Positions 4,223 to 7,559 of a stretch of DNA of 28,107 nucleotides are shown piece by piece (position 1 is the first letter of the stretch; the number at the start of each line of letters is the position of its first letter). The notes under the pieces are model-generated. The model saw only the letters and a list, made by a program, of their open reading frames with translations. It had not been told where the DNA came from and made no database searches. Source of the DNA: Candidatus Baldrarchaeum yapensis (lineage in GTDB: Archaea > Asgardarchaeota > Baldrarchaeia > Baldrarchaeales > Baldrarchaeaceae). Location: positions 1-28,107 of the forward strand of contig JAEOSH010000023.1 of assembly GCA_016840465.1 (NCBI GenBank). Reading direction: 5' to 3'. The position numbers and the translations under genes were made by a program.

Positions 4223-5842
4223 TCACCTTATGGGCACTCCCTCCACGAGCCTATCGGATAGCACACGGGTGATGCGCACCTTCATGGTTTTGCCGACATC
4301 GCTACCTGCGTTTCGAACTAGGATCACAGGGCCCTCGTTAATAACGTAGCCAACCCCATAAGACAGGTTGTACTTGTAGGGCTCCGCTATTATCACTCTG
4401 AAGGTTCTTCCGAGCAACTTCTTCTTCACGTTCTTATTTATACGTCGAGCCTCCTCAACTATCAGCCTGCTCGCTGGATCCTTTACCGCGGGCACACTTC
4501 TAAAGTCTCCGAACGCCGAAAATGGCAGAGGTTTAAACCTATATATAGTTATTTTCTCCACTCCCTCCCTCTCAAACTTTCTCATGATATCAACGGTTTC
4601 TCTCGCCGTTTCCATTGTTTGTCCCGGGAGACCATGTATGAAGTAAACATATGGGCGTAGTCCGTACTTTTTCGCTATTTTTACGGCATTCAGCACTTCT
4701 CTCGGCGTACATGGCCTTCCTATATCTATGCAGTGCTTCTCCGATCCCGTCTCGCATCCGAAGTGTATCGTTGTACCGGGAAGATACTTTGCAATTATTG
4801 ACGCGCCCCTCTCATCGAACAGCGACGCCTTCGCGTTCTCTATGCTTATATAAACGTCATTTTCCTGAACCTCGGGCAGTGAAGTGATCATCGAAAGCAA
4901 CTTCTCGATCGCCTCATAGTTTGGTGGCGGCCATCTAGGATCCGTTAAAATACCGCCTTCAACCAATTCTTCGCGTTGATACTCGAGAAAATCCGAGGCT
5001 CCGAGAATTATCCTCCTAGCTCCTAATTTTACCAATTCCTTTATCTCCCTAACTATGTGTTCTGGATACCTGCTCCTAGGGGGACCGTAAAGCGAGGGTA
5101 CCGAGCAATACCCGCAACCGGGAGGTATATTCTCGGGACAGTAGTATCGCTCTTCAAGAGGTCCTTCCCTGCACTTCCCACAACCACTACACTTTCTACC
5201 GTCTGGTAACTCTATCCTCGTCCTGTAAAAGTTCGAGCATCCCCTCACGCACTCGACATATATTCGTGCGGCAAAGAATGTGGGATAATCGAGAATGTGA
5301 CGGATCGATGGAAAGTAACTATTTAACTTCTCCTTAGAAAGTATTGGGCGGAGTTTATTAAGAACAACTCCCTCCTCACTTCTCCAGGCAATTCCTCGGA
5401 CGTTCATCAACTCCTCATCCGGCGGGACTTCACCATCTTTAAGTCCGAGAGAGAGTAACTCCTCTAGAGTTTCCTCTCCCTCTCCTATTACCGCCAGATC
5501 ACAGTTGCATCTCCTAAAGAGTAGATAAGGATCGGCAGCGATGGGTCCTCCCACCACGGCGGGTGCTGGTTCTCCCTTGTACTTACTTTTCCACATATTC
5601 ACAATCTTCATGACCGCTGGCAAATCTATGCTCATCCCACTGACCATTAAAACGTCATATTCCCGCATAATCTCAGGTTTTTGAATCACTGTTTCCGCGG
5701 TCATTATTTTAGAGTACAACTTCCATTTGCTGAGAATACCGGCAATCGTTCTGGGTGCTGCACCTATCACATCCCTAGTAAACCTCCGTTCTCCTTTTTC
5801 TGCTCCTAAAGCGTCTACGATCAAGAACTTCATACTCATCAT
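4223..5842 (-). CDS. B12-binding radical SAM protein with C-terminal TRAM-like domain
   Basis: Cobalamin-binding-like N-terminus (VVGGPIA, AVIGEGEETL), RGC...GCGYC cluster motif, FGCETGS, YFIHGLPGQT and a C-terminal beta-rich TRAM-like region. Confidence 0.85.
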   Translation of the reverse strand: MMSMKFLIVDALGAEKGERRFTRDVIGAAPRTIAGILSKWKLYSKIMTAETVIQKPEIMREYDVLMVSGMSIDLPAVMKIVNMWKSKYKGEPAPAVVGGPIAADPYLLFRRCNCDLAVIGEGEETLEELLSLGLKDGEVPPDEELMNVRGIAWRSEEGVVLNKLRPILSKEKLNSYFPSIRHILDYPTFFAARIYVECVRGCSNFYRTRIELPDGRKCSGCGKCREGPLEERYYCPENIPPGCGYCSVPSLYGPPRSRYPEHIVREIKELVKLGARRIILGASDFLEYQREELVEGGILTDPRWPPPNYEAIEKLLSMITSLPEVQENDVYISIENAKASLFDERGASIIAKYLPGTTIHFGCETGSEKHCIDIGRPCTPREVLNAVKIAKKYGLRPYVYFIHGLPGQTMETARETVDIMRKFEREGVEKITIYRFKPLPFSAFGDFRSVPAVKDPASRLIVEEARRINKNVKKKLLGRTFRVIIAEPYKYNLSYGVGYVINEGPVILVRNAGSDVGKTMKVRITRVLSDRLVEGVPIR

Positions 5843-5862
5843 CTCGGCAAATGGCGTGCTTT

Positions 5863-5870
5863 TTTATAAA
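5863..5870 (-). promoter_or_regulatory. TATA box (TTTATAAA) of the radical SAM gene, probably leaderless
   Basis: Consensus TATA about 21 nt upstream of ATG 5842 and no SD. Confidence 0.5.
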
Positions 5871-5994
5871 TTCTTGAAAAGTATCTCAATTACATGCGTA
5901 TCACAAACGTCTCTCTCCTCTACTCTGATGGCCACGCGAGATCTCTCGGGTATTACGATGAAGTGCGTGGGTAGCGATGTTTAACACCACTTGA

Positions 5995-6016
5995 GATGCT
6001 GATTCGATGCTGATTC
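5995..6016. repeat. Perfect tandem 11-bp direct repeat (GATGCTGATTC x2)
   Basis: Read directly in the intergenic region between the divergent radical SAM and aIF1 genes. Confidence 0.6.
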
Positions 6017-6147
6017 ATTGAACGAGTAGCAATCCATGGTAACTTCCTATTTAGCGAGCCACATGTTAAGGAGAACAAGATTAATAGGCATTTATGATAT
6101 TAATTATTGTCCTACAACCTCCATAAAATAACCTTAAAGGAGGCCGG

Positions 6148-6213
6148 ATGGTATATCTGAGATATGTCCGGTTTGCGGATTACCACAAGATCTATGTGTA
6201 TGCAAGGAGATAG
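6148..6213 (+). other. Out-of-frame AUG-initiated 21-codon ORF overlapping the aIF1 start
   Basis: ATG at 6148 reads [21 protein letters not shown] and ends at TAG 6211-6213, in a different frame from aIF1. Confidence 0.4.
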
Positions 6214-6461
6214 CTAAAGAGGAGCAAAGGATAAAGATAAGACTGGAAAAGAGAAAGTGGGGACGAGAGGTTACAATAATAGAGGGATTTGATGAAAAGG
6301 AGGTGGACCTTGACCGCATCGCATCAAGGCTCAAACAAAAATGTGCCTGTGGCGGGACCATTAAAAACGGACGGATAGAACTCCAAGGCGATCACAGACA
6401 GAAGGCAAAGCAAATACTGATAGAATTGGGCTTCCAAGAGAGCAACATCGACATCACCTGA
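6153..6461 (+). CDS. sui1: Translation initiation factor aIF1 (SUI1/eIF1 homolog) with a predicted non-canonical AUA start
   Basis: Hand translation gives (I/M)[101 protein letters not shown], a complete archaeal SUI1. There is an in-frame TAA at 6135-6137 and no ATG/GTG/TTG before the zinc knuckle. GGAGG lies at 6139-6143. Confidence 0.93.
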
Positions 6462-7449
6462 ACTCCCTGCCTTCACTGACTAAAGACTCAAACCCTAGTG
6501 CACTCACAAGTTCCTTATAGCGGTTCCTTATTGTGACCTCCGTAACTCTAGCAACCTCTGCGACCTCGCGTTGCGTGCGTCGCTCTCCGGTGACAATAGC
6601 AGCAAGGTATAAGGCTGCCGCTGCAAGTCCAGTGGGATCCTTTCCCGCTGTTAAGCCTTTTTCTTTTGCTTTTTTCAGGATATCTATCGCCTTCTGAATG
6701 GTTAAGCCAGAAACATTCAACTCGCTTCCAAATCGTTTTACAAAGTTGAGGGGGTCGCTGAACGGAATTGCATATGGGGTCTTCTTTAAAATTCCGTACA
6801 GCAACCTGTAATATTTCCCTAACTCTTTCTTAGAGATTCTGGACTCGCGAGCAACTTCGTCAAGCTTTCTAGGTATGCCGTGAATTCTACATGCCGCGTA
6901 CAGCACTGCTGCGACCATTGCGCTTATGCTCCGCCCCCTTATCATTCCACTCTCCAAGGCAATTCTATAAAGAAGTGCTGCACTCTCTTTTACCGTCTGC
7001 GGTAGATCCATGAGGCTAGCCAGTCTTTCCAACTCATTCATCGCCTGAACAAGATTTCTATCAGCACTTGTATGCATGCGCACCCTCATATGCCACTTCC
7101 TTAGCTTGTATGCATGTATGCGCTCACTTAAGCTGAGATCCTTACCACTCGCATCCTTGTTCCTCCAATCTATCAGTGTGCTGAGACCCTTATCATGGAT
7201 TGTGAGGGTAAGGGGTGCACCCGTTCTGGCCCTCCGCTCCTTCTCTTCCCTCGTGAAGGCCCTCCACTCGGGCCCCCTATCAACAACATGCTCGTATAGC
7301 ACTAGCCCGCAACCGGTGCACACGAACTCTCCCCTTTCGTGATCGAAAATCACCTCCTTACATCCGCACTCCGGACATACAGTTATGTCATCTCCCATAT
7401 GGTCCTGAACGCTATTGTTTTCCGAATGTCTAGTCGTCTCTGCGGACAT
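6454..7449 (-). CDS. tfb: Transcription initiation factor IIB (TFB)
   Basis: Zinc ribbon CPEC...CTGC, B-reader GPEWRAF, and two cyclin repeats ending [16 protein letters not shown] 7449 follows AGGTGAGG. Confidence 0.96.
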
Positions 7450-7559
7450 GAAGTACCTCACCTAAAAAGACAGTATACGCTAGCCTTCTTTTGATAGAAG
7501 GTAAACACAATTAAAAGATGCTTAATTCGAGAGTCTTACTTACCTTAAAAACAGAAACA

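Follow-up and report, generated by a model that had tools for sequence, protein, structure and literature searches.

Feedback control of start-codon stringency is textbook knowledge for bacteria, in which it is exerted through IF3, and for eukaryotes, in which it is exerted through eIF1. The bacterial infC gene, encoding IF3, starts at AUU, and its negative translational autoregulation has been demonstrated. The aIF1 (SUI1) locus in the window (the whole stretch of 28,107 nucleotides that was analysed) resembles infC in that the gene of a factor rejecting non-canonical starts is itself preceded by a normal Shine-Dalgarno (SD) sequence and has a near-cognate start. Moreover, the Asgard family f9 (Promethearchaeota) also uses AUU for aIF1. 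However, aIF1 and IF3 have neither fold nor origin in common, the codon in the window is AUA, the codon in Asgard archaea varies by lineage (AUA, AUU, AUC, CUG), and the feedback exerted by aIF1 is a putative one.

The second described system is that of eukaryotic eIF1 (SUI1), in which an AUG in a poor context leads to negative autoregulation (Ivanov et al. 2010, as cited in PMC6237735); PMC6237735 gives the poor-context AUG of eIF1 solely as a eukaryotic analogy. In the Asgard case the protein is homologous to eIF1 (SUI1 domain) and acts likewise in start-site stringency, and its mRNA also has a suboptimal start. Nevertheless, eukaryotes keep AUG, weaken its Kozak context and rely on scanning, whereas the aIF1 gene of the window has a near-cognate codon that is positioned by an SD. 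Compared with ordinary archaeal aIF1 (Nezhaarchaeales, DPANN-type), the protein is the same, with the (M)SEIC start and zinc knuckle, and the layout is likewise SD-led. However, the ordinary genes start at ATG, or at TTG or GTG in some clades, and a canonical start was missing in none of 60 such loci.

The first-pass annotation of this DNA knew of no description of such a start for archaeal aIF1. This agrees with our searching of the archaeal-initiation literature and a 2026 Asgard review in full text, in which neither aIF1 genes with a non-AUG start nor an autoregulation of aIF1 came up. PMC7531240 and PMC6237735 likewise do not describe an archaeal feedback on start-codon stringency.

The aIF1 frame and its start region

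A complete 102-codon SUI1 frame missed by the ORF list had been described in the first-pass annotation, and the profile scores bore this out. The frame scored 85.8 bits against Pfam SUI1 (cut-off 25.5), 160.3 bits against NCBIfam NF002096 (cut-off 98) and 119.6 bits against TIGR01158 (cut-off 111.65). It also carries the archaeal-type zinc knuckle CxxC...CxC, and an N-terminal zinc knuckle is a common trait of archaeal aIF1 (PMC6237735). For this gene the standard ORF list gives merely a 52-aa GTG fragment (6303-6461), because no ATG, GTG or TTG precedes the first Cys codon. The features of the locus are the following.

6090-6108, + strand: TATA-like element atttatgatattaattatt, in the AT-rich stretch 6090-6131, read from the sequence
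6122-6131, + strand: TATA-like element cataaaataa, in the same AT-rich stretch, read from the sequence
6135-6137, + strand: in-frame TAA closing the aIF1 frame upstream (another in-frame TAA at 6129-6131)
6139-6143, + strand: Shine-Dalgarno GGAGG (AGGAGG from 6138), 9 nt before ATA 6153
6148-6213, + strand: 21-codon ORF over the aIF1 start, opening at the out-of-frame ATG 6148-6150 and closing at TAG 6211-6213
6153-6155, + strand: ATA, proposed near-cognate start codon of aIF1
6153-6461, + strand: aIF1 (SUI1) coding sequence, 102 codons plus TGA
6165-6203, + strand: N-terminal zinc knuckle, 13 residues, in frame in all relatives
6222-6434, + strand: SUI1 domain (Pfam PF01253), residues 29-99 of the 107-residue frame
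6454-7461, - strand: convergent gene of TFB (TFIIB), sharing 8 nt with the end of aIF1; a neighbour outside the proposed mechanism

The open frame runs from 6138 to 6458 and ends at TGA 6459-6461, giving 107 residues when counted from the TAA. Between TAA 6135-6137, which stands 5 codons ahead of the ATA, and the first Cys codon (6165) it reads RRPDGISEI and contains no ATG, GTG or TTG; the in-frame stop and the lack of a canonical start ahead of the zinc knuckle, both reported earlier, are thus plain from the sequence. The codons ATA-TCT-GAG-ATA-TGT aligned with M-S-E-I-C of homologues (public record P0005; loci L144 and L147), so that ATA 6153 indeed falls at the position of their Met. Furthermore, a public 102-aa protein record begins MSEICPVCG, which is the frame from ATA 6153 with ATA read as Met. 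The GGAGG was located 9 nt ahead of this ATA, as had been stated, with ccggatggt (6144-6152) as the spacer, and the assembly letters over 6140-6165 include GGAGGCCGGATGGTATATCT.

Other ways of entering the frame were rejected. Initiation at the downstream GTG 6303 would cost the protein its conserved zinc knuckle as well as half of its SUI1 domain; since the zinc knuckle is conserved in frame in all relatives, it must be translated, and GTG 6303 is ruled out. Read-through from the upstream 31-codon ORF (6036-6131) would have to pass two in-frame TAA codons. The gene sits within a gap of 310 nt that follows a divergent radical-SAM gene, and its other neighbour, TFB, belongs to the Pfam families Zn_Ribbon_TF and TFIIB (annotated in the twin assembly). 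Since aIF1 stands alone between a divergent and a convergent gene, translational coupling to an upstream gene is no option. The AT-rich stretch 6090-6131 with its two TATA-like elements is a candidate promoter of a monocistronic aIF1 transcript.

The SD ends 4 nt ahead of the out-of-frame ATG 6148, which in turn precedes ATA 6153 by 5 nt and is one base out of the aIF1 register. It could compete with the AUA; nevertheless, it appears not to be a core part of the feature because it is missing from the sister family f2. A geometry like that of the window (ATG, 2 nt, then CTG) was seen in the two loci L017 and L020 of family f4 and is absent in f2. A hairpin can be drawn across part of the SD and the ATA, in which GGCCGGAU pairs with GUCCGGUU (window 6138-6185), with -17.2 kcal/mol for 6128-6200. 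This hairpin was rejected as a feature, with a z of -0.7 relative to shuffled sequence and no counterpart in f2. Rfam gave no match over 5800-6500; its sole match in the window is a tRNA gene at 2912-2984 on the + strand (RF00005, 54.4 bits).

The own genome, 96% complete and in 100 contigs, gave a single aIF1 match, and the frame is intact, with 66-73% identity to relatives across the full length. Since aIF1 is essential in H. volcanii (PMC3828320), this single copy must be expressed.

To place the 9-nt spacer, the starts of the own genome were tabulated by distance from GGAGG. ATG after GGAGG peaked at a 7-nt spacer (62 cases), followed by 34 cases at 8 nt and 28 at 9 nt, on a background of about 10-15. 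The earlier statement that 9 nt is the spacing of other SD-led genes was thus no more than roughly right: this spacing is above background, but the mode is 7 nt. The 4-nt spacing, which is that of ATG 6148, was found in 14 cases and equals background. For ATA after GGAGG there was no peak at spacers of 7-9 nt. When the genome was scanned for aIF1-like configurations (a codon 6-10 nt behind an SD, close to the 5' end of a long ORF that lacks a canonical start in the vicinity), 149 SD-led starts at ATG, GTG or TTG were recovered, one at ATA, which is aIF1 itself, and a handful of doubtful others. A short stretch lacking a canonical start is trivial, but a conserved single-copy factor gene lacking one is not. 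With aragorn, run on the own assembly with and without intron search, no tRNA-Met and no tRNA with a UAU anticodon were found.

Two other genes of the same genome were observed on the side. In a 534-aa radical-SAM protein (Pfam 45.6 bits; L304:80-1681 on the - strand, equal to G000:C37:7779-9380) a canonical start first occurs at 34 codons from the beginning of the frame, whose 5' end has an ATC 8 nt behind GGAGG (within GGGAGGTG). It may be a second non-canonical start in this genome, or just a shorter protein. The aIF1A gene (G000:C59:12757-13092) starts at TTG (TTG-CCA-AAA, 'LPKKK'; L204:1516-1518, equal to G000:C59:12772-12774); TTG occupies the homologous place of aIF1A in several Asgard families (f3, f7, f8), and ATG does so in f9 and f2.

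Start codons of aIF1 in relatives and in other archaea

In class and order searches the own class comprised five species genomes only. It was placed in the Asgard archaea through the names that NCBI gives to near-identical proteins of other families. The ATA start was conserved in all four of them that carry aIF1, namely that of the window's own family (f1) and three of the sister family f2; close relatives with a canonical in-frame AUG, which would have spoken against an AUA start, were therefore not what was found. The three f2 genomes have AGGAGG, a divergent 9-nt spacer and then ATA-TCC-TTA-GAA-AGA-TGT. Past the upstream stop their aIF1 frame lacks a canonical start, and none of the frames has an ATG close to the SD. 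The layout common to f1 and f2 is AGGAGG, 9 nt, ATA-TCN. A second public assembly (GCA_054386075.1, an 80-kb contig) was identical over 6060-6200, including the ATA and the out-of-frame ATG. Protein scans of genome and metagenome contigs gave no match closer than 68% identity and only ATG-starting homologues of other lineages.

The tabulation of aIF1 start codons proposed in the first-pass annotation was carried out over the Asgard archaea and two other phyla. The loci were anchored by tblastn, the frame was walked upstream to the in-frame stop, and the canonical starts before the zinc knuckle were listed. No canonical start was present in 60 of the 136 Asgard aIF1 loci, as compared with 0 of 60 in two other archaeal phyla. 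The 60 loci belong to eight families, with the following counts of loci without a canonical start.

f1 (the window's own family): 1/1
f2: 3/3
f4: 2/2
f7: 4/13
f9: 46/51
f25: 1/1
f26: 2/2
f28: 1/5

At the homologous position these 60 loci have ATA, ATT/ATC or CTG. The other 76 Asgard loci start at ATG (49), GTG (24) or TTG (3). The largest family in the census is f9, named Promethearchaeota/Lokiarchaeia by NCBI; in ten of its genera an in-frame stop follows GGTTGTGA, and two or three codons separate this stop from ATT-AAA-GAC-GAC-GAC-ATT-TGT, with ATC replacing ATT in two loci of one genus. Most genera of f7 have GTG directly ahead of S-D-E-G-G-I-C and four have CTG there, and in two of these four the stop is just two codons upstream. 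Two genera of f26 have GGAG, 9 nt, and then ATA; in f4 an ATG precedes the CTG start by 5 nt; and in f28 the homologous codon is ATG, GTG, TTG or ATA, depending on the genus. An SD-like match of at least 4 nt preceded 59 of the 60 near-cognate starts, and the spacer was fixed within a lineage, being 9 nt for ATA (f1, f2, f26) and 10 nt for CTG (f7).

On a gene tree, at least 11 changes between canonical and non-canonical starts were counted, versus 43-49 in the five of 100 label shuffles listed. The tree was computed from a protein of 100 residues with the start region left out; since it is weak, the origins are given as 'several' only. The use of three different codons by unrelated families cannot be explained by fewer than several separate origins. 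In many Asgard lineages a near-cognate codon has taken the place of the aIF1 start codon, and this happened several times independently.

Some further loci were noted in the census. Some f9 genomes have a second, diverged aIF1 copy with about 44-49% identity to the query: L300 (G216:C2), L302 (G283:C23) and G165:C222. The starts of these second copies are ambiguous, with an upstream GTG or ATG, or an ATA or ATT at the I-K-D/E-E/D-K-I-C position. Locus L014 (G030, family f18) has ATA (ATA-GCA-CAA-CAA-ATA-TGT) versus ATG in five sister genomes, and its start is also ambiguous, for an in-frame ATG lies within the SD region 4 codons upstream.

The loss of the canonical start is specific to aIF1, because aIF1 of two other phyla and Asgard aIF1A keep canonical starts and aIF1 was the one SD-led ATA start in the genome-wide scan. 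A canonical start was missing in 0 of the 60 aIF1 loci from two other archaeal phyla. The 30 loci of the phylum including a Nezhaarchaeales genome start at ATG (13), TTG (16) or GTG (1), and the 30 loci of a small-genome DPANN-like phylum all start at ATG. The aIF1 homologues obtained from pattern scans of genomes and metagenomes also start at ATG throughout. As for the control aIF1A, a canonical start was missing in 0 of 50 Asgard genomes (14 of them f9, the own class included), and ATG, GTG or TTG stood at the expected N-terminus.

Within the phylum that includes the Nezhaarchaeales genome, one clade has TTG behind AGGTGA (TTG-AGC-GAA-ATA, that is, L-S-E-I-C) in 16 of the 30 genomes sampled (loci L143, L147-L152, L154, L157-L159, L164-L166, L170 and L171). 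Weak aIF1 starts are thus not confined to Asgard archaea.

Proposed autoregulation and alternative explanations

There is strong support for a gene model with initiation at AUA 6153, which represents one case of a phylum-wide pattern; we consider it very probable that this AUA is the real start of aIF1. In the proposed mechanism, the GGAGG 9 nt upstream would position the 30S subunit on AUA 6153. The initiator Met-tRNA would pair imperfectly with the AUA, and the protein would begin Met-Ser-Glu-Ile-Cys. The near-cognate starts predicted for aIF1 across the Asgard archaea are AUA, AUU/AUC or CUG, and often GUG is predicted.

The published biochemistry of aIF1 bears on what such a start may do. 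According to PMC4705826 and PMC6237735, 30S complexes in the S. solfataricus system bind both AUG and AUU mRNAs without aIF1 and AUG mRNA alone with aIF1, and S. solfataricus aIF1 is also described as destabilising a non-AUG initiation complex; this evidence on codon discrimination comes from an archaeon distant from the organism of the window. In the P. abyssi model, aIF1 hampers the initiator tRNA in becoming fully accommodated as long as no proper codon is paired, and weaker codons are expected to lower the output (PMC6237735). Since aIF1 destabilises non-AUG initiation complexes, a weak start on its own mRNA would most likely serve to make its synthesis sensitive to aIF1. With aIF1 in excess, the AUA of its own mRNA would be rejected, and at low aIF1 this AUA would be accepted, so that an aIF1 synthesis inversely sensitive to aIF1 activity would be the most likely function of the weak start. 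The mark of this type of autoregulation, a conserved near-cognate start on the factor's own gene, was found in 4/4 class genomes and in 60/136 Asgard loci. From the published aIF1 biochemistry together with infC and eIF1, we put the chance that aIF1 negatively autoregulates through its own weak start at about even. The statement as a whole, an AUA start with a feedback function, is favoured to a modest degree. We infer that AUA is used in vivo, that Met is the first residue and that a feedback loop operates.

The main rival to this reading accepts the near-cognate start as real but assumes that it simply keeps the output of a small stoichiometric factor low, with no feedback by aIF1. Initiation-factor genes indeed often carry weak starts: aIF1A starts at TTG in the own genome and in many Asgard families, and it is no fidelity gatekeeper of the kind that aIF1 is. 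Moreover, aIF1 has TTG in 16/30 genomes of another phylum and GTG in 24 Asgard loci, and sequence by itself demonstrates no feedback. However, GTG, TTG or a weaker SD would suffice to lower the output, and yet the starts repeatedly left the normal set, with a good SD kept, on the very gene whose product rejects such codons, while the control aIF1A always stays within the canonical set. Furthermore, some feedback would come about by itself if aIF1 discriminates between codons in the published way. A merely low-output start is for these reasons a serious but rather unlikely explanation.

A transcript that begins at about 6148-6153, leaderless, near-leaderless or otherwise SD-independent, with GGAGG as promoter-proximal DNA, is improbable. 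The TATA-like cataaaataa at 6122-6131 lies about 26 nt before 6153 and could place the transcription start near 6150, in which case the GGAGG would be outside the mRNA; SD use has also been reported to be rare in Lokiarchaeia (PMC12993045). Nevertheless, AGGAGG and the exact 9-nt spacing are kept across two families in which the spacer sequence has diverged, SD-like motifs stand before 59/60 near-cognate starts, SD-led ATG starts are clearly enriched in the own genome, and a leaderless mRNA with AUA at its very 5' end would be a still greater rarity. These points argue for SD-led initiation at AUA 6153.

If the sequence were in error, the true codon at 6153 could be ATG, or an extra base could bring ATG 6148 into frame. 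The genome is a metagenome assembly of 100 contigs, and S. solfataricus aIF1 was once mis-annotated as frameshifted through a sequencing error (PMC8211752). However, the second assembly is identical, ATA stands at the same place in three genomes of the sister family, 60 Asgard loci from many assemblies have starts of the same kind, and the public 102-aa protein record also begins at this ATA. The indel that the first-pass annotation had named as fatal to the AUA start would have no ATG to rescue in the sister family, and an error is very improbable.

Equally improbable is a start at AUG 6148 with a programmed -1 frameshift that takes the ribosome to the aIF1 frame. The offset of this AUG is one base, and a -1 shift would bring the two frames together, but ATGGTATATCT (around 6148-6160) contains no slippery X XXY YYZ motif. 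In addition, the AUG stands 4 nt from the SD, a spacing at background level, it is missing from the sister family, and the downstream structure is neither significant nor conserved. A decaying pseudogene with a lost start codon would account for the missing canonical start but is hardly credible, given that this is the sole aIF1 copy in a 96% complete genome, that the frame is intact at full length with 66-73% identity to relatives, that the same start state is kept across families and that aIF1 is essential where tested (PMC3828320).

Annotation and evolution of the Asgard aIF1 start

The first-pass annotation had expected annotation pipelines to miss or truncate such genes, and the public entries agree with this in part. 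Many JGI, ENA and Logan entries and some NCBI entries are cut to 70-90 aa; the Promethearchaeota aIF1 entries P0154, P0157, P0217 and similar ones have this length, with an internal TTG or GTG start and no zinc knuckle. However, NCBI records start the window's gene at ATA and Promethearchaeota aIF1 at the homologous ATT (MKDDDIC...). The gene models are therefore partly in the databases already; the circuit is well supported as anatomy, and from this anatomy and the described analogies we infer the regulation. Callers limited to ATG, GTG and TTG clip aIF1, which can distort marker-gene and comparative analyses of Asgard archaea.

AUA, AUU and CUG could be genuine start codons of an essential archaeal gene. 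A conserved near-cognate aIF1 start in the archaeal lineage closest to eukaryotes is a candidate for the missing archaeal version of the feedback, and the start pattern of Asgard aIF1 bears on when the eIF1 circuit arose. With some reserve, we suggest that self-limitation of aIF1 through its own weak start might be a general, repeatedly evolved rule in Asgard archaea and may be a forerunner of the poor-context loop of eIF1. If this is true, the abundance of aIF1 in Asgard cells would set a genome-wide threshold for non-AUG starts, and all three domains would tune the stringency of initiation by the same circuit logic.
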